Shown here piece after piece: positions 5,709 to 22,004 of a stretch of 64,000 nt of DNA. How positions within the stretch are numbered: position 1 is the first letter of the stretch; the number at the start of each line of letters is the position of its first letter. The notes beneath the pieces were generated by a model, which did no database searches, was not told where the DNA came from, and saw nothing but the letters and a program-made list of their open reading frames with translations. The position numbers and the translations under genes were made by a program. Source of the stretch: Candidatus Kaiserbacteria bacterium (GTDB lineage: Bacteria; Patescibacteriota; Minisyncoccia; Phycocordibacterales; UBA2100); assembly GCA_016214605.1 (NCBI GenBank), contig JACROD010000014.1:41074-105073 (forward strand), read 5' to 3'.

Positions 5709-5825
5709 GGCCACCAAATGAATTCGTTATTTTTTGTTCGAGGACCGAACCCGCAGGCTCGCGGAGCGGCCGTGAGGGCGCTCCGCGTTCCGCAGAACAA
5801 AAAATAACGAATTCATTTGGTGGCC
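5709..5825. repeat. 117-nt near-perfect palindrome (31-bp perfect arms, GC-rich 55-nt centre with inner 9-bp stem)
   Basis: ggccaccaaatgaattcgttattttttgttc at 5709-5739 is the exact reverse complement of 5795-5825; inner cgcggagcg/cgctccgcg. Confidence 0.85.
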
Positions 5826-5831
5826 TAACCA

Positions 5832-5902
5832 CTATCCACACCTTATCCACACCTTGTGAACATGTGGAGAAGAATACGTCTATCTTCTACTGTGTGAATA
5901 CG
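5832..5902 (+). promoter_or_regulatory. DnaA-box cluster and -10 element upstream of dnaA
   Basis: ctatccaca 5832-5840, ttatccaca 5843-5851 (perfect TTATCCACA), tgtggagaa 5863-5871; TATAAT at 5897-5902. Confidence 0.55.
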
Positions 5903-7288: not shown

Positions 7289-7525
7289 ATTGTGGATAAT
7301 CATGTGTATATGTGTATGAATAGTACGTTGAAAAGAGGTGCGGAGAGTAGAGGATATAGACAAGTGCTTACCCATACACTTCTTATACCCACATTAAATC
7401 ACCATTACGCACAAAGTTTTCAACAATCGGACATATGGAATAAATCCTTTCTTTTCAACAAAAAATTCAGTTTTCCCCATTATCCACACCACTAATAGAG
7501 TTAGTAAGTTTTTAAAAATTTTTCT
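7289..7525. promoter_or_regulatory. candidate oriC (dnaA-dnaN intergenic, AT-rich, DnaA boxes)
   Basis: perfect DnaA boxes tgtggataa 7291-7299 and ttatccaca 7480-7488 flanking an AT-rich stretch. Confidence 0.5.
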
Positions 7526-8629
7526 ATGAAGATCAGTACAAGAAAAGAATCGATTGTGCAGGCAGTACTTCTCTCTGAGAGAGTCACGGGGAAGAAGGAG
7601 TCTCTCCCTATTCTCTCCTGTATTCTGATCGATGCTCAAGAGAATGTGGTGGTGCGTGCGACCAATCTGGAGAGTGGTGTGGATGTGCGTGTACCGGCGG
7701 AGATCGAGGAGAAGGGCAGGGTGGCTGTCATGGCCTCAGTGCTCTCACAAACACTACGTTCTATAAATAGTGATACCGTTACTCTTAAGACCAATGACGA
7801 CGGTAATCTTGTTATTGAATCTCGCGGCACCAAGACGGTTATAAAAGCGATCCCTCATGATGAATTTCCGACACTTTCTCGCGATACTGGTGAAAAGAAA
7901 GGTGTAACGGTACTTCGTGACCGTTTTTTACGCGGTCTTCAGGCTGTTATCTATGCGGCCTCACCTTCCATGATCCGTCCGGAATTGGGGAGTGTGTATG
8001 TGTCTATAAAACAAGGAGTTATTGTGTGCGCAGCCACAGATTCATTTCGTTTGGCGGAAAAAACCATCCCTGGTGGGTCTAGGGAGGAGGTAGGGGACAT
8101 ACTAATACCACTCAAGCATGCACTCGAGCTCGTGCATATACTTGAGCGCCTCAATACAGAAAATATCGAGGTGCTCGTCGAAGAGACGGACCTCGATGTC
8201 CGGTCTGATAGTACACGATTTATTTCTCGTGTGGTTGATGGGACATTTCCCAACTACAAAGAGATTATTCCCAAAAAATTCACCACAGAAGCAACACTCC
8301 TCAAGAGTGACCTGTCGGAAATGCTCCGAAAGGCGCGTATATTTTCAGGCAACGACCAACATGTGGGACTCCATGTATATCCGGGGCGTAAGATATTTTC
8401 CGCCACAGCGCGCAGTAATGATGTGGGGGAAATGTCCGATTCTATAGATGCCGCTATCCAGGGAGAAGATATAGATATTAATTTTCACATCGGGTATCTC
8501 GGAGAGTGTCTCTCTTCAATCGAGTCGGACAGTATCACGCTTGGGTTTGGTGGTATCGGTAGGCCGATGGTGGTGCGCGGCGTGTCGGATGCCACATTCA
8601 CGTATTTGGTAATGCCGCTTAATCGCTAA
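7526..8629 (+). CDS. dnaN: DNA polymerase III beta sliding clamp
   Basis: 367 aa with beta-clamp three-domain pattern; directly after dnaA. Confidence 0.9.
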   Translation: MKISTRKESIVQAVLLSERVTGKKESLPILSCILIDAQENVVVRATNLESGVDVRVPAEIEEKGRVAVMASVLSQTLRSINSDTVTLKTNDDGNLVIESRGTKTVIKAIPHDEFPTLSRDTGEKKGVTVLRDRFLRGLQAVIYAASPSMIRPELGSVYVSIKQGVIVCAATDSFRLAEKTIPGGSREEVGDILIPLKHALELVHILERLNTENIEVLVEETDLDVRSDSTRFISRVVDGTFPNYKEIIPKKFTTEATLLKSDLSEMLRKARIFSGNDQHVGLHVYPGRKIFSATARSNDVGEMSDSIDAAIQGEDIDINFHIGYLGECLSSIESDSITLGFGGIGRPMVVRGVSDATFTYLVMPLNR

Positions 8630-8640
8630 TCTCTCCTGGT

Positions 8641-10860
8641 CTAGAACTGTGGAATGATTGTGTGTGATGAATCGGTATTTCCCGGAAGGGTGTTTATAGG
8701 GAATGTGGCAGTGGATGTGGCGTCTGTGGTGGAGGTACTTATAGTACCTCTGACCCAGAGTTGTACTGCATAATCCCAATAAGGAAACTGAGAATCACTG
8801 TAAGGATTTCCGGTTTGTGTATTGTGTGGGTTGTCTTTTTGTACCCAATATAAAATATCATGTACTCCTCGCGAGGGGTCGGTGTTCCAATTACCGCGCA
8901 AAACAGGCGGTAGGGAATCTTCGTCTGGATCGGGGGCCGGTGGGGTAAAACGATCACTCGGATACTTTTCGGCAGCATACACCATCACATCATGCCATGG
9001 TGGCGCTACGATGAATGCCGCTATCTTTTTTACCATAGGACTATTATCGTTGTTGCCGGCCCATGCGCCGATCGCAATAGACGGTGTGTAGCCGATGACC
9101 CAAGCGTCGCGAGAGTCGTTGGTTGTTCCCGTCTTATCGGCTACGTCCATACGATGGAAATTCAACGGACTATCAACGCCGAATTCGGGGGTGCGCGCCA
9201 CATTATCGGAAAGGACATCATTGATCTGTCGTGCGACCTGTGGATCAAGAACACGTGTCGAGTTGGCTGTGTATTTTTCGAGCACATGTCCGCGATTGTC
9301 CCGTACCTCAAGGATGCCTGTAGGTGGATTCTTCACCCCATCGTTGGCGAATACACCATATGCACTCGTCATATCAAGCAAGGTCACTTCGCCGCCGCCG
9401 AGCACCAAAGTGAGTCCGTATTGATTTGGGTCGCCAAGAGTCGTGATGCCGAGAGCTTCGGCGGTATCGATCGCGTTTTGTATCCCGACAAGATAAAGGG
9501 TTTTGATCGCGGGGATGTTTTGCGATTGGGCGAGTGCGTTACGTAGACTCATGGGCCCCTTGAAATTTCCATCGTAGTTTTGTGGCGAATAACAAGGTGG
9601 TTCACCGTTAGTCACATCTTCAACTTTACACGCGGTCGAGAATTGTGTTTGCAGGTCGAATACGACAGTGTTTGGGGTGTATCCTTTTGCGAAGGCTGCC
9701 GCGTACACAAATGGTTTAAACGATGACCCTGGTTGGCGATGGGCAACAGTAATATTTACTTGGCCGTCGATGTTGTCATTGAAGTACTCTTTGGAGCCGA
9801 CCATAGTGAGGATCTGTCCGGTCTTCGGATCGATCGCCACAAGGCCCATATTTGAGGCGTTGAAGTTGTTTTGCATGGCAGGTGCATATGATCGTATGAC
9901 CGATTCGGCCTTTTGTTGCAAATCATAATCAAGAGTGGTGATCACACGGAGTCCGTCGTTGTTTACCGCATCGACACCGTATTTTTTCTCAAGATACTCT
10001 CTCACAAAGAATACAAAATGCGGCGCTTTGATTCCGGCTTCTTTTTCACTCGTGAATTCGACCTTTTCACCTTTGGCGGCCCGGTATTCTTCTTCGGTTA
10101 TATAGCCTAAAACCTTCATTCTTTGGAGTACAAGATTTTTACGTATGTCGAGTGCGGCGCGGTTGTTGCCGTATGGTGAATAATAAGTGGGTGCCTGCGG
10201 GATCGCGGCTATATATGCTGCCTGTGCAAGATCGACATCTTTTGCGTCGAGACCGAAGAAGTATTGGGTCGCCTCCTGTACTCCATAGATTGTGCCGCCG
10301 TACGGGGATTCGTTGAGGTAGGCGCTGAGGATCTGTTCTTTTGAGTATGTGCGCGTGAGGCGTAGTGCAAGAATGATCTCTTGAAGTTTGCGAAGAATGG
10401 TTTTATTTTGGGACAAAAGGGCATTCTTGACGACCTGTTGAGTGATCGTCGAGCCGCCCTGCTCGTATGATCCACTGAACAAGTCCACCAGCATGGCGCG
10501 CGCAAACGAGAGGGGACGAAATCCGGCGTTGGTGTAAAAAGAGGAATCTTCGATCGACACAGTCGCTTTTTGAATATAAGGAGAAATATCTTCTATAGGG
10601 ACCGAGGTGCGGCGAACCGACCCGTGTACATCGTAGAGCACGATATTACCGGTACGATCGTATATTTTTGTCGATTCGGAGACCTGTCGCGCCTCGAAGT
10701 TGTCTATAGAGGGGATCGGCATGATAGCAGCCCACACAAGCATGACGCCGAAGAAAAAGAGAAATAACGCGAAACTTCCTATGATCGCGAGCTTGAGCCA
10801 CTGAAAAGCGTTATTTTGGGCCATTTTTTTAGCTGGTACAAATCGTCGTAATCTGTGCAT
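8641..10860 (-). CDS. class A penicillin-binding protein (glycosyltransferase + transpeptidase)
   Basis: 739 aa; N-terminal TM helix, GT51 motifs (EDSSFY, GGSTITQQ), transpeptidase SxxK (GSSFKPF). Confidence 0.85.
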   Translation of the reverse strand: MHRLRRFVPAKKMAQNNAFQWLKLAIIGSFALFLFFFGVMLVWAAIMPIPSIDNFEARQVSESTKIYDRTGNIVLYDVHGSVRRTSVPIEDISPYIQKATVSIEDSSFYTNAGFRPLSFARAMLVDLFSGSYEQGGSTITQQVVKNALLSQNKTILRKLQEIILALRLTRTYSKEQILSAYLNESPYGGTIYGVQEATQYFFGLDAKDVDLAQAAYIAAIPQAPTYYSPYGNNRAALDIRKNLVLQRMKVLGYITEEEYRAAKGEKVEFTSEKEAGIKAPHFVFFVREYLEKKYGVDAVNNDGLRVITTLDYDLQQKAESVIRSYAPAMQNNFNASNMGLVAIDPKTGQILTMVGSKEYFNDNIDGQVNITVAHRQPGSSFKPFVYAAAFAKGYTPNTVVFDLQTQFSTACKVEDVTNGEPPCYSPQNYDGNFKGPMSLRNALAQSQNIPAIKTLYLVGIQNAIDTAEALGITTLGDPNQYGLTLVLGGGEVTLLDMTSAYGVFANDGVKNPPTGILEVRDNRGHVLEKYTANSTRVLDPQVARQINDVLSDNVARTPEFGVDSPLNFHRMDVADKTGTTNDSRDAWVIGYTPSIAIGAWAGNNDNSPMVKKIAAFIVAPPWHDVMVYAAEKYPSDRFTPPAPDPDEDSLPPVLRGNWNTDPSRGVHDILYWVQKDNPHNTQTGNPYSDSQFPYWDYAVQLWVRGTISTSTTDATSTATFPINTLPGNTDSSHTIIPQF

Positions 10861-11115
10861 AACGTGTGGATATTGTACCGCTGATTTGGTGTTTTGGGCA
10901 ATGGGGCTTGTGAGTATGATCGGAAGTCTGCGGAGAATTTTGTTGCTGCGGAACTCGCTCTGGTGAGCTCAAACAGGTCGGTCACTCCTGTGCCCGACAC
11001 GGTAGTGAATGATTTGTATCTAATGTAGCATTACTTAACTCTAGTAAGAGTTGGACAAATTTGACTTGTCTTTATCACCAGTCCTCGCTGCCAAAATTCT
11101 CCGCGGACTTCCGAT

Positions 11116-11592
11116 CTACGTTGTTCGTGAGTGAGCTAAATGAGTCACTCCGACGGCGATCGCATCGTATTCATCATCATGTTTGATTTCTTTGTCTATT
11201 TTGAGCAATATTTTAAGCATTCGTGCCACTGTCGTTTTGTCGGCGCCCCCATATCCTGTTGATGCGTTCTTGATCTGTCCAGGGGTGTATTCAAAGACGG
11301 GGATATTGGCGAGTGCTGCAGTATTGAGTAGGGCACCGCGCACCTCAGCGACCTTCATGGCGGTCTTTTGGTTGTTTGTGAAGTAGAGTCGCTCCATCGC
11401 CACGTGGTCAGGGGTGTGCTCGCGCATGAGTCGCGCGCATCCGTCGGCGACTGCCGCGAGTCGGTCGGTAAACTCATCTTTGGGGGAGGTCTCGATACAG
11501 TCGGAATAGAGATATATCTCGCGACCATCCACCTTTTCCACAATAGCCACCCCGCAGCGGCCGTAGCCAGGATCAATTCCAAGGACTTTCAT
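11116..11592 (-). CDS. ruvC: Holliday junction resolvase RuvC
   Basis: 158 aa; MKVLGIDPGYGRCGVAI… RNase H-like fold with catalytic acidic residues. Confidence 0.9.
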   Translation of the reverse strand: MKVLGIDPGYGRCGVAIVEKVDGREIYLYSDCIETSPKDEFTDRLAAVADGCARLMREHTPDHVAMERLYFTNNQKTAMKVAEVRGALLNTAALANIPVFEYTPGQIKNASTGYGGADKTTVARMLKILLKIDKEIKHDDEYDAIAVGVTHLAHSRTT

Positions 11593-11661: not shown

Positions 11662-13119
11662 ATGTTTGATCCAGTAAAATTACTCCAATTTGTTCTAGGT
11701 CTTCCAAAAGAGACTGAATATCTCGAATTTAAAGAGAATAATCTGAGTGAAAAGACATTGGGTGAACTGATTTCTGCGATATCGAACGCGGCGTGTTTGT
11801 GTGATGTTGAATATGGATATGTTGTGTACGGAATAGAAGATTCCACTCATACAGTAGTTGGTACAAAACTCAAACCAAGATCAATAAAGATAGGGGGTGA
11901 GGATATGGAGCTTTGGCTACAAAAAATGCTCGACCCGTCCATTAACTTTGAAATATTTGAACTTGATTTCAATGGGATGCCTGTGGTTATTTTTAAAATA
12001 CCAGCGGCAACAGAGCGGCCGTTACGATTTCAGAGCCAATCCTATATTCGAATAGGTAGTAATATGCGTAACCTAAAAGAATTTCCTGAAAAAGAAGCAA
12101 TTATTTGGAATAAAGCAAGAAATCGTTTTTTTGAAAAACTTGAAGCCATCCCAAATCTCTCGGAGGATGAGGTTTTAAAATTACTCGATTACCCAAGTTA
12201 TTTCAGACTTACAGACCAGTCATTACCAGGAAACCCAAGTGGGATATTAGATTTTCTAATTAAAGAAGGTTTTGTTAAGCAAGAAGACGGAACTGGATAT
12301 GCGGTTACAAATCTGGGGGCAATTTTATTTGCAAATGACCTGAGTCAATTTCCATCACTAAAAAGAAAGGCCGCTAGAGTTGTTGTTTATGAGGGGATGG
12401 ATAGGACGAAAACAGTAAAAGATCGTGAAGGTAAGCGTGGGTACGCGGTAGGGTTTGAAAATCTTATTGAGTTTATTAATGACCAACTTCCTTCTAATGA
12501 GGAGATTGAAAAAGCACTGCGTGTCCAAAGAAAGATGTATCCAGAAATAGCAATTCGCGAGCTCGTCGCGAACGCACTTATTCATCAGGATCTTACTGAG
12601 CGTGGTACAGGACCATCCTTCGAAATATTTAGTGATCGAATTGAAATTAGTAATCCCGGTAGGCCGCTCATTGAGGTGGATAGGTTCCTTGACCATAAGC
12701 CACAATCTCGTAATGAACAACTTGCAGCCTTTCTGCGGCGGATAGGTGTTTGCGAAGAGCGTGGGAGTGGGATTGATAAGGTCTTTAAATCTATCGAAGT
12801 GTTTCAGTTACCCGCACCTAAATTTGATGTCAATGATAAATACCTAAATGTGATACTTTTCGCTCCTCAAGATGTTAGAGAAATGAGCAAGGAAGATAGA
12901 ATTCGAGCATGTTTTCAGCATGCATGTCTTCGCCATGTCTCAAATGAAACCATGACAAATGCTTCATTAAGAGAAAGATTCAAACTCTCGGATAGTAAAA
13001 CTGATAGTGTCTTTGCATCCAATATTATATCTGAAGCGATTAAAGCTGGAAAAATTAAGTTATTAGGGGATGATCCAAACGCTAGAAAATCTGCAAAATA
13101 TGGCCCACCCTGGGCTTAA
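11662..13119 (+). CDS. Schlafen/AlbA_2-like divergent AAA ATPase with C-terminal HATPase_c_4-like domain (COG2865-type predicted regulator)
   Basis: 485 aa; clearly AT-rich compared with flanks; inserted on the opposite strand between ruvC and yebC. Confidence 0.55.
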   Translation: MFDPVKLLQFVLGLPKETEYLEFKENNLSEKTLGELISAISNAACLCDVEYGYVVYGIEDSTHTVVGTKLKPRSIKIGGEDMELWLQKMLDPSINFEIFELDFNGMPVVIFKIPAATERPLRFQSQSYIRIGSNMRNLKEFPEKEAIIWNKARNRFFEKLEAIPNLSEDEVLKLLDYPSYFRLTDQSLPGNPSGILDFLIKEGFVKQEDGTGYAVTNLGAILFANDLSQFPSLKRKAARVVVYEGMDRTKTVKDREGKRGYAVGFENLIEFINDQLPSNEEIEKALRVQRKMYPEIAIRELVANALIHQDLTERGTGPSFEIFSDRIEISNPGRPLIEVDRFLDHKPQSRNEQLAAFLRRIGVCEERGSGIDKVFKSIEVFQLPAPKFDVNDKYLNVILFAPQDVREMSKEDRIRACFQHACLRHVSNETMTNASLRERFKLSDSKTDSVFASNIISEAIKAGKIKLLGDDPNARKSAKYGPPWA

Positions 13120-13211
13120 TTTAAGTAATCTCTAAGGTAGAGTACTGGGCATTTTCCTTATTTATAGCCATATTTTATTTAATCTTAAAGTAGAGTGGTA
13201 TATCGGCGACA

Positions 13212-13751
13212 ATGTTCACTATGATCGAATACACCCATAAAATAAGCACTCGTGCGCGGGGGATGCGGATCTCTGTGGGGGTGGATGGGGGAGTAGTGGT
13301 CACTACGCCGCGGTTTGTGACCGTCGGCATGATCGATCGTTTTGTGACCAAACACACCGACTGGATATCGCGGCATGTGGCGCGGGCGCGGTTGCGCACG
13401 GTGATGCGGATACCACACAAGGATGTGGTAGTGATCAAGAAGCAGGCGCTCGAGCTCGCAGAAAGCCGCTGTGCGCATTTTGCAAGGCATTACGGCCTGG
13501 CATACAAAAGGATATCGATTCGTGCGCAGAAGTCACGGTGGGGGAGTTGTTCGGCGGCGGGGAACCTCAGCTTCAACTACAAGATCGCGATCATCCCGCG
13601 ACATTTGGCCGACTATGTCGTGGTGCATGAGATCTGCCACCTCGCGCACATGAACCATTCAAAAAAATTCTGGGATCTGGTCGCACAGACGATGCCGGAT
13701 CACCGCGAACTCCGCAAAGAGCTGCGCCGGATGCATGTGGTGGTCGACTGA
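13212..13751 (+). CDS. DUF45/YgjP-like zinc metallohydrolase (M48/WLM-like)
   Basis: 179 aa; HExxH motif HEICHLAHMNHSKKFW. Confidence 0.7.
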   Translation: MFTMIEYTHKISTRARGMRISVGVDGGVVVTTPRFVTVGMIDRFVTKHTDWISRHVARARLRTVMRIPHKDVVVIKKQALELAESRCAHFARHYGLAYKRISIRAQKSRWGSCSAAGNLSFNYKIAIIPRHLADYVVVHEICHLAHMNHSKKFWDLVAQTMPDHRELRKELRRMHVVVD

Positions 13752-14386: not shown

Positions 14387-15400
14387 TTAGATTAACGTTT
14401 TTTGCGAGCGTGGTGGCTCCACTCCGATATGCTCATAGCCCTTAGGGGTGACGATGCGGCCGCGCGGCGTTCTTTCTAAAAGTCCGGCTTGGATGAGGTA
14501 GGGTTCGTTGACCTCTTCGATCGTGGCCTCCTCCTCGGAGAGCGCGGCCGCTATGGTCTTGAGCCCGACCGGACCGCCGTTAAACTTCTCGGCGATCGTA
14601 CTGAGGATATCGCGGTCGGTTTGATTGAGTCCGATCTCGTCGATCTCAAGGAGCGCGAGCGCCTTTTTGATCGTCTTGATGTTGAGTGGCTCGCCCGAGA
14701 CCTCGGCAAAATCGCGTGCGCGCTTGAGGAGATAATTCGCCGTGCGCGGCGTCGCACGGCTGCGGCGCGCGATTTCCATTGAAGATTCTTCATCCACGGC
14801 GATATCAAGGATCTTTGCACTGCGGCGCAGTATCTCGGCGATCTCTTTGTCGCTGTAGTAGGCGAGGCGAAATGTCCCGCCGGAGAATCGACTGCGCAGT
14901 GGTGCGGAGAGGAGTGAGATGCGCGTGGTCGCTGCAATGAGGGTAAATGGTGGCAGCTCAAGCTGTACAGTGCGTGCGGCCGGCCCCTTACCGATCACAA
15001 TGTCGAGTACCCCGGCCTCCATGGCGGGATAGAGGACCTCCTCGATCATGCGATTGAGGCGGTGGATCTCATCGATAAAGAGTACGTCGCCGGGTGAAAG
15101 ATTGGTGAGGATCGATGCGAGGTCGCCGACACGCTCGATCGCGGGACCTGATGTGGAGCGGAGGGACGCACCGACTTCTTTGGATATGAGGTGGGCGAGC
15201 GTGGTCTTGCCGAGGCCCGGCGGACCATAGAGGAGGATATGCTCAGACTGTTGGGAGCGGCCTTTGGCGGCTTGCAGGAGGATGCGGAGGTTCTCTTTGA
15301 TGGTGGTTTGGCCGACGTACTCACCCCAGATCGAGGGCCGTAATGCTTGATCTAATGACCGTGGACTCTTGGAGGGTGGGGTATGGGGGGAGGGAACCAT
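14387..15400 (-). CDS. ruvB: Holliday junction branch-migration ATPase RuvB
   Basis: 337 aa; Walker A LLYGPPGLGKTTLA, RuvB-like AAA+. Confidence 0.95.
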   Translation of the reverse strand: MVPSPHTPPSKSPRSLDQALRPSIWGEYVGQTTIKENLRILLQAAKGRSQQSEHILLYGPPGLGKTTLAHLISKEVGASLRSTSGPAIERVGDLASILTNLSPGDVLFIDEIHRLNRMIEEVLYPAMEAGVLDIVIGKGPAARTVQLELPPFTLIAATTRISLLSAPLRSRFSGGTFRLAYYSDKEIAEILRRSAKILDIAVDEESSMEIARRSRATPRTANYLLKRARDFAEVSGEPLNIKTIKKALALLEIDEIGLNQTDRDILSTIAEKFNGGPVGLKTIAAALSEEEATIEEVNEPYLIQAGLLERTPRGRIVTPKGYEHIGVEPPRSQKTLI

Positions 15401-15488
15401 AAGAGAGAAAAAGGAGAAAAGCTATTGACTTTTCTATTTGGTATGATAAACTACTGCCTAGCTCACTAAAAACACAAAAAACGAAAAA

Positions 15489-15630
15489 ACAGGTGTGCGA
15501 TTCTCTCAACGATCGTGTCATCACCCAGGACGGCGGCAGTATGCCGCCCCGCGGAATTTTACTTCCCCTATCCTGAGGTCATGGCGCAGCTTTTCATGCA
15601 AAAGTGTCGTTGAGAGAATCGCGCACCTGT
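15489..15630. repeat. long-range inverted repeat (24-bp arms, one G-U-compatible mismatch, about 94-nt interior with inner hairpin)
   Basis: acaggtgtgcgattctctcaacga at 15489-15512 pairs with 15607-15630; flanked by A-run 5' and T-run 3'. Confidence 0.8.
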
Positions 15631-15696
15631 TTTAAAAAACAACTATCCACAAGATATCACCCAAGTGTGTGCGCTCAAAGTGATATTTATGGTGTG

Positions 15697-15864
15697 ATGG
15701 AGGAAGGGATGTTCTATATCTCGCTAGGGACAGCATTGTTGGGTGCCTATCTCGCAGGGATTTCTTACAGACAGAAAAAAGTGAATCCTTGGGTAGTGGG
15801 CATTGGACCCGTTTTGGTGTTTATCGGTAGTTTTGGAGCTAGTTTTTTTCGATACTCCTTCTAA
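15697..15864 (+). CDS. small membrane protein (55 aa)
   Basis: internal ATG of track ORF 15604..15864; two hydrophobic segments; followed by a strong terminator. Confidence 0.35.
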   Translation: MEEGMFYISLGTALLGAYLAGISYRQKKVNPWVVGIGPVLVFIGSFGASFFRYSF

Positions 15865-15869
15865 ATTGC

Positions 15870-15900
15870 AAGAGGACCCGTGTGGGTCCTCTTTTTTATT
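15870..15900 (+). terminator. rho-independent terminator
   Basis: aagaggaccc-gtgt-gggtcctctt followed by TTTTT. Confidence 0.65.
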
Positions 15901-16031
15901 TCGCTTCTACCCAAAGCGTATCATCACTGAGATCCACCATCCTATCTCAAACAAGTTTGCTGTTGATAGTGAGAGACGGGTCGGCTGCGCACATGATACA
16001 CTAGGACGACCTATCAATAGGAATCATATAT

Positions 16032-19000
16032 ATGCATACATATCTACGTGCCGGATTTTTTTTATCGATCCACACCCGGTTACTGCAAATAACCCTTTTA
16101 CTTCTCATATTTGCGGGCATGATACCGCAGCTCGCCTCGGCCGCTACGTTGCAGCCCGGTGTGGATTGTGCGACTGGCGCCGCTGCGCCCCAAGCGGAAT
16201 ACTCGCTCAATGTGTCAGCCTTGCCTCTCGGTGCGTATGCGGCAAATACGCTCTCGCCCGACTTCACCAATGCCGCCGGGTCGGTGCTCGCAAACTCCTT
16301 TTGGACAGCCTCATCGACCAAATATGCCGTGTCCGCCAATACGGCGCAGTCCATTCTCGCCTCGAAGTATTGCTCGCGCGATATGGAGGTCGAGACGTGG
16401 ATGCGCAAGGGATATGTGTTCCTGCGATTAACTCCCGAAGGAAAGGCAATCTACTTTAATATCGACTATGATAATAGTTATTTGGCGGTCGGTATTGCGA
16501 CGAGTACCAACGAAACTGCATACTACCCTGGTGCTACGCGCACGCTCTATTTAAACAGCAATCTCGTCGGCACGATTCCGGGTTTTAGTAAGACCGGCAC
16601 CGACAACCAACGCCTCACTTTCGGTGTCGAAGGGTTCGAAATCTATGCCAAGTTCAATGGGGTGGAATTCATGCGCATCAAGGATTTCCATCATATGGCA
16701 GCGGGACGCGTAGCCCTCAAGGCGCCAGCCAACTACGGGCTCCGCTCGACGACCGTGCGCAACTTTGCCGATAAGGCGATCTTGAGCGATCTTACGGCTG
16801 GCGTGTACGATCCGCGCGACTTCGGCTTCCGCTCCATTCAAACGACCGGTTCTATCAGTGCAGGCAGCAATACGCTCACACTCGCAGGCCCGACATCTTT
16901 TGCCGTCGGCGATTTTGTGATCGTCGAGATTGGCAAGGAGCCGGGTGCGGGCATGCGCGGCACCAAAGGAGTAGGCGGCACCTGGCCGGCAAAATCGTAC
17001 CCCAACCTCACCGCCATGCAGGCAGATACATCGCAGATCGACGGCCTGTATGCTTGGCGTGAAGATACCGGAGACGTCTATCGTTTTGCATCCGCAAACT
17101 CCTCGTGGGGAAGTGCGTATACGTGGTATACGGCGGGGACACCCGCATGGGGGCAAGACTATTATTCAAAAAAGTACTATCCCGCCAAAGCGGTACCGCG
17201 TGCACTACAGGCGCGTATCACGGCGGTGAGCAACAGCGGCGCTACACTCACTCTCGACAAGCCGGCTGTCGTGTCCGTCACGAGCGCGAGCGCATATCTT
17301 GATGTCGCCCCAATTCTTAATTTCCTGGTCGGTAGGGATATTTGGTACAAGTTTGGGGGAGTGGCCGGCGACTTGCGGTCCTTTACACCCCTCAATATGA
17401 AAGTGCCTATTCCCGCAGGATCCTATGCGGTTGGCGGAAGTATTCTCACGGGTAACGAACGTACGAACAACGTGCTTTATGGCCAAGGATCAACCACCTC
17501 CACGTTATTCAGCCCCAAGGGCGTGTCCTCCGCATCAATCTGGTTCAATGGTTCAAACAATATGCTGCGCGACCTACGTCTCGTCGGCAACTTCGGTGAC
17601 AATGGTTTTGGTCTTAATTGGGCGACAAGCATCATTCCATTTGGCTACGGCCCGTCCGGGCTCGAGGTGACGTATACAAGCACCGGTGCTGTCACAGAAA
17701 CGGTGATCACGCAGGGCTTTGGCTTTCCTATTGGCATCATGATGTCCGGGGGTAATCTCACAGTGCAGGATATCAAGGTAGACAATGTGTGGTGGGCGGC
17801 GGTAGGCGCCAACTACTGCAATACCTGCTGGGCGTATCGTGTCGACAGTACGGTAAAAGACCCGTTCCAGACCTACATTCAATGGCAATTCGAGTGGGGT
17901 GATTCGACTGGTGGTGGATGCGTCGATTGTACGGTCACGAGCCCTCAATGGATCATCCCCGGCTTTGCGATGGCAAAAAGCACTAATGTGCAGTTCATCA
18001 GGCCAAAAGGCATCAACGCTGTCTTTGACGCGAACTCTGTGGGCAACTTCCTCTTTCAAGATCCTGAGACGACCATCAAATCCATGAGTCAATTTTCCAC
18101 CAGTTCTTTCTCGGCTATGGGGTGGATCATGAACATCAACACGAATCTCGATAACGCGCTTCCGGTACAAGATCGCGACAAGCGTAGCGGTCCGGGCGGC
18201 AAGATCATCAATCCACGCTTCATTGTGCAGGGTCCGATCAATAGCAGCAACAACGGTCTCGGCGCGATCGTGATTAATAACTGGAATCCTAATGTAACAA
18301 TTGAGGGTGGCTACATCGAAGGCCCAAACTGGCAGTCGCCGAGCACTATCAATACGCCGGTGGGGGTCAATTCGCAAGGCACCAGCACGGTGATCAATGG
18401 TCTTCGTGTGGTAGGTACAGTGAACCCGGCGCTCGGTCCAAAAGGAAATGTGGCTTTGGGTAAGAACGGTATCATCCGAAACTGCATCGTCGACCTCATC
18501 TTCCTGAGTGGTACTGCCAGGAAAGAAAATTGCAAAACGAATGCCGAATACGGTGCGCTCGGTATTTCCACCGGCGCTGCGCTCTGGCCGCCGCGCACGA
18601 GCATTATCCTCCAGGGATCAATCACAAGTTCGGGCAGTACGTCGACCGTGCGAGGATTCGCGTATGGTACAACCACAAAATACATGGCGACGACCACAGA
18701 ATCGGGACTGTTCGGACCGGGATCGTTTAGCGTCACTGTGCCGAATATCGTATGTGCAACCACCTATCACGCTGCGGCCTATGCGCAAAACGCAGTCGGC
18801 ATGAATTATGGCAATGACATTACGTTCGCGAGTGATCCATGCACTCCTTCGGCAGCCGCCACGTCAAGCGGCCAGGTCCTCGGTGTCTCGATAACAGACA
18901 CATCACTGGTCGATACTTCTTGCAAGATTGATCGAATGCTTTCCCGGGGAACTCACGGACCGGCAGTGACATGCCTCCAAAAGACGCTTGTCGCGCAAAA

Positions 19001-19181
19001 ACTCCTCCTTGAGGATTCGGTGACGGGTTATTTTGGTCCCGGTACCGAGGAAGCGGTACGTCAGTTCCAAGCGTCGCGAGGAGTTGTCTCAAACGGTACA
19101 TCGGAAACCACCGGCTATGGGCGTGTGGGGCAACGTACACGCGCGCTTCTGGTGAGTCTGGGACAGATGCAGGTCCAATAG
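16032..19181 (+). CDS. large secreted protein (likely beta-helix) with C-terminal peptidoglycan-binding domain
   Basis: 1049 aa; signal peptide; C-terminal PG_binding_1-like segment (…YFGPGTEEAVRQFQASRGV…). Confidence 0.7.
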   Translation: MHTYLRAGFFLSIHTRLLQITLLLLIFAGMIPQLASAATLQPGVDCATGAAAPQAEYSLNVSALPLGAYAANTLSPDFTNAAGSVLANSFWTASSTKYAVSANTAQSILASKYCSRDMEVETWMRKGYVFLRLTPEGKAIYFNIDYDNSYLAVGIATSTNETAYYPGATRTLYLNSNLVGTIPGFSKTGTDNQRLTFGVEGFEIYAKFNGVEFMRIKDFHHMAAGRVALKAPANYGLRSTTVRNFADKAILSDLTAGVYDPRDFGFRSIQTTGSISAGSNTLTLAGPTSFAVGDFVIVEIGKEPGAGMRGTKGVGGTWPAKSYPNLTAMQADTSQIDGLYAWREDTGDVYRFASANSSWGSAYTWYTAGTPAWGQDYYSKKYYPAKAVPRALQARITAVSNSGATLTLDKPAVVSVTSASAYLDVAPILNFLVGRDIWYKFGGVAGDLRSFTPLNMKVPIPAGSYAVGGSILTGNERTNNVLYGQGSTTSTLFSPKGVSSASIWFNGSNNMLRDLRLVGNFGDNGFGLNWATSIIPFGYGPSGLEVTYTSTGAVTETVITQGFGFPIGIMMSGGNLTVQDIKVDNVWWAAVGANYCNTCWAYRVDSTVKDPFQTYIQWQFEWGDSTGGGCVDCTVTSPQWIIPGFAMAKSTNVQFIRPKGINAVFDANSVGNFLFQDPETTIKSMSQFSTSSFSAMGWIMNINTNLDNALPVQDRDKRSGPGGKIINPRFIVQGPINSSNNGLGAIVINNWNPNVTIEGGYIEGPNWQSPSTINTPVGVNSQGTSTVINGLRVVGTVNPALGPKGNVALGKNGIIRNCIVDLIFLSGTARKENCKTNAEYGALGISTGAALWPPRTSIILQGSITSSGSTSTVRGFAYGTTTKYMATTTESGLFGPGSFSVTVPNIVCATTYHAAAYAQNAVGMNYGNDITFASDPCTPSAAATSSGQVLGVSITDTSLVDTSCKIDRMLSRGTHGPAVTCLQKTLVAQKLLLEDSVTGYFGPGTEEAVRQFQASRGVVSNGTSETTGYGRVGQRTRALLVSLGQMQVQ

Positions 19182-19200
19182 TGAAGTATCTTACCGACGC

Positions 19201-19232
19201 AAACTGGCGCCTCTACAGGGCGCCAGTTTTTG
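19201..19232. terminator. terminator between convergent genes
   Basis: aaactggcgcc-tctacag-ggcgccagttt followed by TTTT. Confidence 0.5.
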
Positions 19233-19236
19233 CGCA

Positions 19237-20946
19237 TTATATAAACAGCGTGTCGTCATTGAGATCGACCATACGCCCGAGCTCGTCGAGCGAAGTAATC
19301 CCTTGCAATACTTTTACGATGCCGTCTTGCGCCATGCGGCGGATTTGTTGATGCTTGGCGGCGGCCCAGATGTCGCGATCAGAAGCGCCAGAGCGCACGG
19401 TCTCCTCGATCTGTTTGTCCATCAAGATCACCTCGACGACCGAGATGCGGCCCTTGTAGCCCAAGCCGCCACATTTTTCACAGCCTTTCGGGATCCACAT
19501 ATGTGTTTTGTTTTCAGGAAGTTCGTCCGCATGGGGGATATTGCTCAAAATCTTGTCGACGAGCTCTTTATTGGCACCCTCGATCGGCACTTCCTCATGA
19601 CAATATTTGCACAGGCGGCGCACGAGGCGCTGTGCCATCGCCACGGTGAGTGCGGCGCCGAGGATGTCGGGCGATACCCCCATGTCCATGAGGCGGGGGA
19701 AGGTGCCCGCAGCGTCGTTGGTGTGGAGTGTGGAGAAGACAAGGTGGCCGGTGAGTGAGGCATTGACTGCGGTCGACGCCACTTCGGCGTCACGGATCTC
19801 GCCGACCATGATGATGTCGGGGTCTTGGCGGAGGGTCGAGCGCAGACCCTGTGCAAAACTATAATCCTTGGACACTTGCGTCTGCACGATGCCGTTGAGG
19901 TGGTATTCGATCGGGTCTTCAATCGTGACGATCTTGATGCCAGCCTCATTAACCTTACTCAAAAATGCGTAGAGCGTCGTCGTCTTACCAGAGCCGGTTG
20001 GTCCGGTGTTGAGGATCATACCGTTGGGCTTCGCGATCTCATGATCGAAGATAGCCATGAGGTATTTGTCGAAGCCCAGCGCCTCAAGCGGCAGACCGAT
20101 CGTCGTCGGGTCCAAGATACGCATGACGATGGTCTCGGCATAGGCGCCGGGCAGTACCGAGAGGCGGATCTCGATCTCTTTTTCGTTGACCACGATCGAG
20201 AAGCGGCCGTCTTGCGCGGCATTTTTGATGTTGAGCTTGAGTCCCGAGAGGAGCTTGAGGCGGCTCGACACTAGTGCGTAGGTCGCGAAGTCGAACCGAG
20301 CCACGTCCATCAAGACGCCGTCGAGTCGGTAGCGCATGCGCACGTCGTCTTCTTGTGGCTCAAGGTGTACGTCGGACCCGCCGAGTGAGAGTGCGCCGGA
20401 CATAATGATCTCGAGGATGCGCGAGATGCGATGTGTGTCTTTGCTGTCGGAGCTCGTCTTGATCTCTACGCGCACGTCCTCCATTGTCTTGAGTTTTTGG
20501 AGCATTTGCTGGATGGTCTCGGTGGAGAGGGTAAGGACGCCGGCCTCGGTCTCGGTCGCGTAGGAGATGTCGTGATAGCGATCCCATGCGTGCTCAAGCG
20601 ACGCACGCGAAGCGATCAGACGCCGCACCGTGTAGCCGAGGCGCTCGACCTCGGCTATTTGCTGCAGCGAGTCGGTGCGCTCCGGGGCGCGCATGGCGAC
20701 GAAGATGTTTTTGTTGTTCTTTTGGAACGCCGCTATTTCGAGCTCCCGTGCGCGCGCTTCGGGGATGAGACGCAGAGCATCGGCGTTGATCGATTTGTTG
20801 GTGAGGTCGACATACTCGATGCCGTACTTGCCCGCGAGTATTTCGGCGAGCTGTTCTTCTTCGCGGCGGCGAAGCTCATCAAGGCGCTCCTCCTGTTTTT
20901 TTTCGTTAAACTCGGTGACCATGGGTCCTATTGTAACCCATTTCAT
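19237..20946 (-). CDS. pilB: type IV pilus assembly ATPase PilB/GspE family
   Basis: 569 aa; Walker A LNTGPTGSGKTTTL, GspE/PilB N- and C-domains with Zn-binding CxxC…CxxC. Confidence 0.85.
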   Translation of the reverse strand: MKWVTIGPMVTEFNEKKQEERLDELRRREEEQLAEILAGKYGIEYVDLTNKSINADALRLIPEARARELEIAAFQKNNKNIFVAMRAPERTDSLQQIAEVERLGYTVRRLIASRASLEHAWDRYHDISYATETEAGVLTLSTETIQQMLQKLKTMEDVRVEIKTSSDSKDTHRISRILEIIMSGALSLGGSDVHLEPQEDDVRMRYRLDGVLMDVARFDFATYALVSSRLKLLSGLKLNIKNAAQDGRFSIVVNEKEIEIRLSVLPGAYAETIVMRILDPTTIGLPLEALGFDKYLMAIFDHEIAKPNGMILNTGPTGSGKTTTLYAFLSKVNEAGIKIVTIEDPIEYHLNGIVQTQVSKDYSFAQGLRSTLRQDPDIIMVGEIRDAEVASTAVNASLTGHLVFSTLHTNDAAGTFPRLMDMGVSPDILGAALTVAMAQRLVRRLCKYCHEEVPIEGANKELVDKILSNIPHADELPENKTHMWIPKGCEKCGGLGYKGRISVVEVILMDKQIEETVRSGASDRDIWAAAKHQQIRRMAQDGIVKVLQGITSLDELGRMVDLNDDTLFI

Positions 20947-21009: not shown

Positions 21010-21501
21010 ATGGAGGGCCCACATTTTTTTGGCAAAGGGAAGGGAAGGGTCGCTGACAATATTGCCAAAATAGTGGCGGCGGGAATAACGTTTGGCGCTG
21101 GTGGGGCGGAGGCAAAAAACATACAGCAGTATGCGAGCACCCCATCAACTTTTGAAGAAAACCTTATACGATCTACACAGGAGGAGATGAAACAAAATGA
21201 AGCCGCCGAAATAGAAGCGGTCAAGCTTCTCACTCGGATCTCTCAGAGGGAGGCCTTTGAAAGGGATTCAAATGGGGTTCCGTTACGACAAGGCGAACAT
21301 AATAAACAAGTATATGCTCGGATCAATGGCCAGATCAGAGTATACATTGAAAAATACCCGGCTTACTTGAACCCAACCCCCGCACAAAAACTATTGAATA
21401 CTATCTCTAATATAGATGGGTGGGTGGATGACGATGTACACGCTCACACGATCAATTTTATCAAGTTTATGGTCGTGGCGCATCCTTCTGTGGTCAAATG
21501 A
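21010..21501 (+). CDS. hypothetical protein
   Basis: 163 aa ORF; stop overlaps tsaE start (ATGA). Confidence 0.45.
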   Translation: MEGPHFFGKGKGRVADNIAKIVAAGITFGAGGAEAKNIQQYASTPSTFEENLIRSTQEEMKQNEAAEIEAVKLLTRISQREAFERDSNGVPLRQGEHNKQVYARINGQIRVYIEKYPAYLNPTPAQKLLNTISNIDGWVDDDVHAHTINFIKFMVVAHPSVVK

Positions 21502-22004
21502 AAACAAAGATCGCGGGTACGGATGCGATGGAGACCTTTGCGCGCGAATTCATCTCGCAGCTTTCTCCTGTTGCCGGCGGAGCGACGATCATCGCGCTCT
21601 CAGGCGACCTCGGTGCGGGCAAGACTACGCTCGCGCAGGGGATCGCGCGGGCGCTGGGGGTGGAGGAGGCGGTTACGAGTCCTACCTTTGTGCTGGAAAA
21701 GGTGTATGAGCTAGGTAATCCTAGTGCGGAGGCGGGAGCACTTTTTTCCGCTTCCGCCTATCGTTCGGGTCGGGAAAAAGTGCTCCCGCCTCCGCGCCCC
21801 TGGACACACCTCATCCACATCGATGCATACCGACTCGTAAGCGAACACGAGCTCGAAGTGCTCGGCTGGCACGAAATGGCGCAGAATCCCGGCAATCTGA
21901 TCGTGATCGAATGGCCAGAGATGGTCGCGGAACTTATTCCTGTGGATGCAATACGCATTACTTTCTCTGGTTCTGGAGAGGTGCGAGACATTTCCATCAA
22001 TTGA
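21498..22004 (+). CDS. tsaE: tRNA threonylcarbamoyladenosine biosynthesis protein TsaE
   Basis: P-loop ALSGDLGAGKTTLAQGIA and HIDAYRL motif typical of YjeE/TsaE. Confidence 0.8.
   Translation: MKTKIAGTDAMETFAREFISQLSPVAGGATIIALSGDLGAGKTTLAQGIARALGVEEAVTSPTFVLEKVYELGNPSAEAGALFSASAYRSGREKVLPPPRPWTHLIHIDAYRLVSEHELEVLGWHEMAQNPGNLIVIEWPEMVAELIPVDAIRITFSGSGEVRDISIN

Follow-up and report, generated by a model that had tools for sequence, protein, structure and literature searches.

Genomes of the Candidate Phyla Radiation (CPR)/Patescibacteria are tiny and contain very little non-coding DNA, and a long, nearly perfect inverted repeat standing in front of ruvB in one of them raises the question of what such a sequence is. 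The repeat belongs to a 64,000-nt stretch of the genome of a Candidatus Kaiserbacteria bacterium (contig JACROD010000014.1, positions 41,074 to 105,073; hereafter the window, whose own numbering is used throughout). We conclude that this inverted repeat is helix P1, the closing stem of a structured RNA, and is neither a chance occurrence nor, in all likelihood, an ordinary terminator. As judged by sequence comparison, the RNA is the product of an undescribed family of stand-alone structured RNA genes which, as far as sampled, is confined to Kaiserbacteria-like Parcubacteria (CPR/Patescibacteria).

A repeat search of the window places the two arms at 15486-15512 and 15607-15633 (27 nt, 96% complementary, 94-nt spacer), and a 28th pair, U15513·G15606, read directly from the sequence, extends them to 15486-15513 and 15606-15633. 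The sole mismatch within the arms sets T15495 opposite G15624, which would be a U·G pair in an RNA of the + strand and a C·A opposition in one of the - strand. The interior holds a hairpin of its own, GGCGGCA-GUA-UGCCGCC, at 15532-15548. An earlier note, made from the letters of the window, had described a long stem with one G-U-compatible mismatch enclosing its own hairpin, had located it between the start of ruvB and a 55-aa open reading frame (ORF) that ends in a terminator-like hairpin, and had pointed to an A-run before the stem that becomes a T-run after it on the - strand; the repeat search and direct reading bear out the first two descriptions, and the third is correct as sequence. Inverted repeats of at least 18 nt within 400 nt number just 12 in the 64 kb, and the one beside ruvB ranks second by length. 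The + strand is predicted to fold at -84 kcal/mol, compared with -40.3 +/- 4.1 for shuffled sequences (z = -10.8; none of 200 shuffles folds as well), and the - strand at -79.4 kcal/mol (z = -8.5).

Homologues of the element were found by two routes. Among species-representative genomes, the closest relative is a Candidatus Kaiserbacteria metagenome-assembled genome (MAG), L002, with 83% RuvB identity, in which BLASTN detects a 72%-identical element directly upstream of ruvB. RuvB-anchored retrieval added further MAGs, namely L001 and L003-L006 (RuvB 66-81%, L003-L006 lying at 66-72%), as well as L008 (60%). L001 and L002 display the same interior motifs as the window and different outer stems. 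A degenerate core pattern, CGAT.GT..C....CC.AGGAC-N12-42-ATCC...GGTC, was then scanned over metagenome contigs and returned 33 loci, 28 of them genuine and mainly from groundwater metagenomes; the Rifle and Hainich groundwater sites contain close homologues. Pattern scan and RuvB-anchored loci together yield about 26 distinct homologues in Kaiserbacteria-like genomes and groundwater metagenomes, and 21 distinct sequences, including the window, make up the alignments used for covariation and for a covariance model, R1.

These alignments carry the main evidence. RNAalifold predicts 40 pairs across the 21 sequences, 22 of which show compensatory double changes. In the named structure (P1, P2, P2b/c and P4), paired cells make up 92.5% of the total, a share that falls to 38-44% once the partner column is shifted by 1-3; both sides have changed in 21 pairs, and the observed covariation is reached by none of 500 shuffles. 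P1 alone contributes 19 covarying pairs out of 24, and exists in at least four unrelated versions (window/L105/L107; L001/L085/L091; the L002 group; L087/L092/L101/L103/L108/L112). Conservation of the pairing in related genomes, the absence of which the earlier note had named among the grounds for refuting its proposal, was thus found, and with compensatory changes; its view that the element works as a structure at the RNA level, with the + strand as the relevant one, is held up by this covariation and by the wobble pairs described below.

At the equivalent site, the more distant L003-L006 and L008 also encode an RNA built on this plan. Its P1 spans 19-30 bp, one arm includes AGGACG...CUAUCCU (in degenerate form in L006 and L008), a hairpin of the CUUU...AAAG type is present, and some of these RNAs have a small fourth hairpin. 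R1 has one match in the window (126.6 bits, E = 1.7e-26, the window being among its training sequences) and one per homologous locus, always at the ruvB site. With filters off, it reaches L006 (E = 1.4e-6) and L004 (E = 0.0016), and weakly L005 and L003; in the distant homologues it aligns the stems only, and their addition does not improve the pair counts of the inner helices. R1 has no match in 70 non-CPR ruvB loci totalling 1.17 Mb, and the core pattern has none in viral contigs.

No known family matches the element in the Rfam/covariance search that the earlier note had suggested. At the gathering threshold, Rfam 15 (4227 models) finds tRNAs elsewhere in the window and nothing at the element, and a permissive scan (E <= 10) of the window, L002 and L108 likewise gives no match there; a weak match to the L20 leader was discarded, as it covers only the terminator of the downstream ORF. 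Full-text literature searches on structured RNAs of CPR/Patescibacteria or RNAs linked to ruvB turned up no description of the element.

The architecture of the RNA can be followed along the + strand of the window, on the basis of the repeat search, the minimum-free-energy fold, the alignments and covariation. The 5' strand of P1 (15486-15513; 19 of 24 P1 pairs changed on both sides in the 21 sequences) leads into the segment 15515-15530, which consists of the 5' strands of P2 (GUGUC), an internal loop (AUCA), P2b (CC) and P2c (AGGA) and holds the invariant motif CC.AGGAC. Then come the variable apical hairpins P3a (15532-15548) and P3b (15553-15566), the 3' strands of P2c, P2b and P2 with the invariant AUCCU..GGUC (15570-15587), the P4 hairpin CUUUU-CAUGC-AAAAG (15589-15605), whose CUUU/AAAG is invariant in the close set, and finally the 3' strand of P1 with UUUU at its end (15606-15633).

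P1, which measures 26-30 bp and contains small lineage-specific internal loops, closes a three-way junction that is four-way in some lineages (L003-L005). The first arm starts with the 5-bp P2, in which a G-C/U·G step is conserved and one pair (30:100) covaries between A-U, G-C and G·U; beyond it lie a 4 x 3-nt internal loop, P2b (CC/GG), a 1 x 2-nt loop and P2c (AGGA/UCCU), capped by one or two variable G+C-rich hairpins with UUCG or CUUG tetraloops in some homologues. P3b illustrates this variability, GGAA/UUCC being replaced in the alignment by GGCC/GGCC in L108 and by GCAGU/ACUGC in L107. The second arm is the short P4 hairpin, the fifth pair of which covaries between U-A and C-G. Just 1-2 nt separate P1 from P2, and P2 is 99% paired. 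Near the junction, CGAU.GU..C.U..CC.AGGACG, (C/U)AUCCU..GGUC, G..GCA.CUUU and AAAG..UCG are invariant in the close set; about half of the invariant junction positions were fixed by the search pattern itself, and those that are invariant though free of it include T46, G57, T99, G109, C112-A113, CTTT, AAAG and TCG (alignment numbering). The marks of the new family are all present in the window, i.e., the long P1, the junction CC.AGGACG / AUCCU..GGUC / CUUU..AAAG, the strand opposite to ruvB and a promoter of its own.

Some lineages add optional modules such as extra 5' hairpins, and optional structured modules are what would be expected of a functional structured RNA. Another optional hairpin, with the motif CCCUGAGCG...CGAAGGG, lies between P1 and the 3' hairpin in L098, L087, L108 and L101; its sequence would allow tandem sheared G·A pairs, and it may be a protein-binding motif. 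Two variants were also observed. In L102 (6092-6231), the promoter abuts the end of P1, which has lost its 5' strand by deletion and kept its 3' strand intact. In L001 (about 7600-7830), the 3' hairpin is longer than that of L085 by an insertion of about 110 nt, which lies between repeats of CCGT(T/C)AGAAATTGC. Pairing of the 5' and 3' regions beyond P1 (UGAC/GUCA, AGUA/UACU) is suggestive and too short to call; UGAC/GUCA withstands an insertion in L002 and becomes AGAC/GUCU in L083.

In every lineage, the distant ones included, a near-consensus promoter of the form TTGAC(A/T)-N16/17-TG.TA(C/T)ACT lies 35-140 nt upstream of P1. In the window, a consensus scan locates its -35 hexamer, TTGACT, at 15425-15430, with TTGAC(A/T) in the same relative place in every homologue including L003-L006 and L008; the extended -10, TGaTAAACT, follows at 15444-15452 with a 16-nt spacer to the -35 and aligns with the TG.TA(C/T)ACT of the homologues. 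A conserved Y-A-G located 7-8 nt past the -10 is the likely transcription start, and alignment of the promoter region predicts that the transcript begins with a short A-rich 5' leader (15459-15485). Among homologues this leader varies in sequence and in length (17-140 nt).

The wobble pairs have the same orientation. Over the 21 sequences, G·U and U·G combinations (52) are twice as frequent as A·C and C·A (26); U29·G101 is kept in 20 of the 21 and U26·G122 in 12, and L003 and L004 have several more G·U pairs in P1 on the + strand. The wobble pairs, the promoter and the 3' hairpin described below thus assign the RNA to the + strand of the window, directed away from ruvB. A 5' untranslated region of ruvB on the - strand is ruled out by the wobble pairs, the orientation of the promoter and the layout of L008, in which, by eye, a hairpin bordered on either side by U-runs is about 10 nt away from P1 and leaves no room for a ruvB promoter beyond the element. 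The giant - strand terminator envisaged in the earlier note does not fit either: the A-run that would supply its T-tail is present in the window lineage only, no gene of the window reads into it, and the conserved U·G would be C·A on that strand. Two DNA-level candidates were also set aside. The ACTG-N5-CAGT palindrome seen near the start site in some lineages is not conserved as an operator would be, and the apparent DnaA box at 15644 (TATCCACA) is a perfect 8-mer only in the window, relatives having CUUCCACGAUA, and is therefore read as part of the RNA linker.

Downstream of P1, the window continues with the linker AAAAAACAACUAUCCAC (15634-15650), which contains this 8-mer and corresponds to ..AACUACUUCCAC(GAUAGCAC) in homologues. 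In 12 sequences of the L002 and L087-L112 groups, a 3' hairpin comes after the linker ..AACUAC..CACGAUAGCAC, then UUUUGUGGU; four of its 10 pairs covary, and 92.5% of its cells are paired, compared with 26-44% when slid. The window lineage has a different hairpin at this position (15651-15692; GAUAUCAC...GUGAUAU and a U-rich tail, from the fold of 15459-15700), with a U-tail that is weak in the window; it is likely the 3' end of a longer form of the RNA. A U-run directly follows P1 in the window, L001, L003, L004 and L005, and not in the L002 group. The predicted size of the RNA is therefore about 175 nt if it ends near 15634, after P1, or about 235 nt if it ends near 15690, at the 3' hairpin.

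The most constant property of the locus is its neighbour. In every related locus with enough flank (RuvB identity 60-98%), ruvB and the RNA are divergently oriented, with the RNA 80-250 nt upstream, and the element is present in 30 of 30 such loci. In the window, ruvB (14387-15400, - strand; Pfam RuvB_N, AAA lid and RuvB_C) has its ATG 24 nt from the -35 hexamer of the RNA. Read on the ruvB strand, the spacer of the RNA promoter includes TATAAT or TATCAT in most lineages, a possible -10 of ruvB that in the window is provided by the AT-rich stretch of the extended -10 element. In L004 (about 9950-9960), the ruvB start codon overlaps the -35 hexamer itself (cTTGACAt / aTGTCAAg; ATGTCAAG), which would imply that the ruvB mRNA has little or no leader and that the two divergent promoters are tightly interlocked. 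Such a compact, shared back-to-back promoter region alone could lock the RNA gene to ruvB. No sign of an antisense overlap between the RNA and the coding region of ruvB was seen.

The gene order of relatives is ruvB-yebC-ruvC-PBP...dnaA. The far flank of the RNA is not conserved: a gene for a T2SSE/PilB-type ATPase lies there in the window lineage and, judged by eye, a response-regulator-like one in the L002 group, small ORFs being the third kind of neighbour, and the end of a similar T2SSE-type gene was recognized by eye, outside the Pfam check, in L001, L085, L087, L108 and L008. The T2SSE and response-regulator-like genes are on the ruvB strand, hence convergent with the RNA.

From these elements, we propose the following scenario. 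A sigma-70-type, near-consensus promoter (15425-15452) would fire away from ruvB, with a start near 15460, and the transcript would terminate either in the U-run that follows P1 or at the 3' hairpin. A specific binding platform, most likely for a protein, would be formed by the invariant nucleotides of the junction and of the internal loops, and the RNA would act in trans within an RNA-protein particle. P1, a duplex long enough for RNase III, would serve as a nuclease-protective stem or as a processing stem of the RNase III type, as in rRNA precursors. The fixed site by ruvB would be best explained by the shared back-to-back promoter region and not by base-pairing with ruvB mRNA. Taken as a whole, stand-alone RNA gene and proposed mechanism together, we consider this explanation probable, while the specific mechanism of a scaffold with a processing stem has, in our estimation, slightly less than an even chance. 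A functional link of the RNA with the ruvB-yebC-ruvC module is possible. A bolder and unlikely reading would make it the previously unrecognized RNA of a housekeeping ribonucleoprotein of a large CPR clade, either as a functional analogue of 6S RNA, which has not been detected there, or as a partner of RuvABC/YebC.

Several observations weigh against this scenario. The ends and the abundance of the RNA are predictions from sequence. Within the close set, P2b, P2c and most of P4 are without variation, which the search pattern itself partly imposed. L003, L005 and L008 were joined to the family by synteny, architecture and short motifs, their R1 scores not being significant, and all members come from one clade, so that cell counts are inflated by shared ancestry. 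Processes acting on DNA could, in principle, also preserve long perfect palindromes. Finally, the absolute linkage to ruvB could point to a role in cis.

Among the alternatives, this last one survives best, although we regard it as rather improbable. The element would then be a cis-acting partner of ruvB, its divergent promoter and stable transcript setting or insulating the expression of ruvB-yebC-ruvC while the RNA product is secondary; conceivable routes are promoter competition or supercoiling coupling in the shared back-to-back promoter, or the blocking of read-through from an upstream gene on the same strand. In its favour, every locus with flank has the RNA linked to ruvB and no other neighbour is constant, -10-like hexamers of the opposite strand lie inside the RNA promoter, the ruvB start overlaps the -35 in L004, and in most lineages the next gene past the RNA shares the strand of ruvB, so that its transcripts would otherwise enter ruvB. 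Nevertheless, promoter coupling requires no invariant junction core, covarying helices, optional modules or dedicated covarying terminator, and the promoters recognizable on the ruvB strand are weak, agreeing with the consensus at 8-9 of 12 positions at most.

A very divergent 6S-like RNA that binds RNA polymerase holoenzyme, P1 mimicking the downstream duplex and the junction corresponding to a collapsed central bubble, is a second alternative, to which we attach only a small likelihood. The element resembles 6S RNA (SsrS) in its rod shape, in the pairing of its 5' and 3' regions, in its strong promoter and expected size (175-235 nt), and in having a small hairpin to the 3' side of the junction. 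Firmicute 6S genes are also syntenic with rarA, which encodes a RuvB-related AAA+ recombination ATPase (PMC8414754), a resemblance that is a parallel only and not homology. In place of the single-stranded central bubble of 6S RNA, which takes up about 10 nt or more per strand, the element has a covarying, base-paired three-way junction with no open bubble: its largest internal loop is 4 x 3 nt, only the 1-2 nt noted above separate P1 from P2, and P2 is itself conserved and covarying. The Rfam 6S models give no match at E <= 10 in the window, L002 or L108.

The small ORF downstream of the element (15697-15864, + strand) suggested a third reading, put forward in the earlier note as a riboswitch-like leader. 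The ORF encodes a hydrophobic product of 55 aa, or 51 aa if translation starts at the ATG at 15709 behind GGAGG, has no Pfam match and is followed by an intrinsic terminator (15870-15900; hairpin 15870-15893 in the terminator scan). Control of this ORF by the RNA, acting as an attenuator or riboswitch-like leader or as the RNA of a type I toxin-antitoxin pair, would account for a small ORF with a ribosome-binding site close behind the RNA in the window, L105 and L107, and for the 3' hairpin of the window, with its weak U-tail and an outer strand overlapping the ribosome-binding region. We find it scarcely credible, given that the sequence of the ORF is not conserved between genomes of 98% and 90% RuvB identity. 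In L105 (RuvB 98%), nucleotide similarity stops at window position 15712 and a different hydrophobic small ORF follows; in L107 the ORF is interrupted. The ORF being thus confined to the window lineage, the RNA is not its leader. Other lineages keep the RNA with no ORF downstream on that strand, which contradicts such a general function and would leave it at best an addition peculiar to one lineage, and in most the next gene converges on the RNA, so that no gene class recurs downstream on the same strand; in 12 sequences the RNA moreover has its own covarying terminator hairpin. As for a toxin-antitoxin system of type I, the RNA lies on the ORF's own strand, and the ORF is absent from most lineages that bear the RNA.

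Finally, a miniature inverted-repeat transposable element, a selfish palindrome or a DNA-level cruciform without RNA function, which the long, near-perfect terminal inverted repeats of a unit of about 150 bp and the other long palindromes of the window (one of them inside the tsaE coding sequence) might evoke, has almost nothing left to recommend it, since the element is single-copy (one R1 match in the 64-kb window, one per related locus) and at the same site in all relatives, has no core-pattern match in viral contigs, and combines arms that differ by compensatory changes with a conserved interior, strand-specific wobbles and its own promoter and terminator. Nor do its flanks show a target-site duplication, since AAAA/TTTT continues the inverted repeat and forms no direct repeat; single copy, fixed synteny and covariation already contradict a mobile element and rule it out.

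Additional observations were made around the element and elsewhere in the window. Relative to L105 and L107, the window contains an insertion of about 3.3 kb (15940-19241) that holds a gene for a 1049-aa protein with a C-terminal PG_binding_1 domain, and the 3' end of the T2SSE ATPase gene (19237-20946, - strand) recurs as an imperfect copy of 28 nt at 15913-15940; the 3' flank of the RNA looks like a variable spot. On the other side of ruvB, two + strand genes, one coding for a Schlafen AlbA_2/HATPase_c_4 protein and the other for a YgjP-like metallopeptidase, lie between yebC and ruvC (11662-13751), where the distance is much smaller in relatives (about 150 bp in L002), and probably constitute an inserted island with a defence-like gene.

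The other long palindromes are diverse. The earlier note had paired the element with the hairpin at 5709-5825, located between rpmH and dnaA and composed of 31-bp arms around a 55-nt interior. This hairpin is indeed also conserved in position, with counterparts in L002 (18169-18279), L084 (2054-2154) and L111 (1923-2050) that differ in arm sequence and have interiors of 55 nt (L002, L084) or 84 nt (L111); the two share no sequence and are separate elements. The hairpin adjoins DnaA boxes, the L002 wobble and one of two L111 mismatches fit the rpmH strand, and a promoter-like site, TTCACA-N18-GATAGT (by eye), is directed along that strand; a leader RNA of rpmH-rnpA and an element associated with the origin are two possible readings of this hairpin. 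The 8-mer TATCCACA occurs eight times in the window against 1.5 expected, the excess coming from the dnaA region, and the four copies that flank dnaA on both sides (5833-5851, 7291-7298, 7481-7488) probably mark oriC. The inverted repeat at 10918-11116 (25-bp arms, 149-nt interior) begins at the last base of the ruvC ORF (11116-11592, - strand), upstream of a gene for a 739-aa PBP-like protein; it looks like a lineage-specific insertion, the ruvC-PBP spacer of relatives being short and without inverted repeat. A palindrome at 21726-21795 (25-bp arms, 20-nt loop) lies inside the tsaE ORF (21498-22004), where the Pfam TsaE match is split in two, suggesting that a palindrome was inserted in frame into this coding gene.

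In genomes that are tiny and hold little non-coding DNA, an RNA that is strongly promoted, deeply conserved, intricately folded and fixed at one locus is likely important. To our knowledge, hardly any lineage-specific RNAs have been described from uncultivated CPR bacteria, and the family provides an entry point into their RNA biology by supplying a covariance model, a defined core and a testable gene. It is also a clean example of a conserved back-to-back promoter pairing an RNA gene with ruvB. For annotation, it calls for caution: long perfect palindromes here can be real closing stems of RNAs and should not be assumed to be mobile-element debris, and the rpmH/dnaA hairpin at 5709-5825 behaves likewise in this respect.

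How does this RNA compare with known systems? With the signal recognition particle (SRP) RNA (4.5S, or the helix 5-6-8 S domain), it shares a long helix, a conserved apical domain with internal loops, single copy and a housekeeping-like promoter; it differs in branch order, in lacking the helix-8 GNRA tetraloop and the symmetric and asymmetric loop motifs, and in its variable apical loops, and Rfam reports no SRP match. The stems of rRNA precursors cleaved by RNase III are, like P1, perfect duplexes of at least 22 bp flanking a functional RNA made from a strong promoter, but the RNA enclosed here is about 95 nt and not rRNA (no Rfam 5S match), and its cleavage is putative. In Y RNAs associated with Rsr/Ro (YrlA type), as here, a long stem made by the 5' and 3' ends bears a branched module resembling a cloverleaf, with a four-way junction in L003-L005 in the case of the element; the element differs by lacking a conserved T-loop-like loop and any Rfam Y RNA match, and no rsr (Ro) gene is present among the ten window ORFs scanned in Pfam, to which the search was limited. 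A retron is not in keeping with the Pfam assignments of the neighbours, which are RuvB, YebC, a T2SSE ATPase and a peptidoglycan-binding protein, with no reverse transcriptase, and by eye, against consensus motifs, neither 5S rRNA nor a tRNA-like RNA, a hammerhead or a K-turn fits.

New orphan RNA families are found regularly, and the element resembles them. Families such as raiA-motif RNA and OLE RNA are also encoded by stand-alone genes and combine a complex conserved fold and an invariant junction or loops with variable peripheral hairpins; they are likewise restricted to one clade, and their function could not be deduced from their neighbours. Compared with them, the element has an unusually long, near-perfect closing stem of 26-30 bp and an absolute divergent linkage to ruvB. 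Minimal genomes, strong covariation and this unusual fixed pairing with ruvB make the family stand out.

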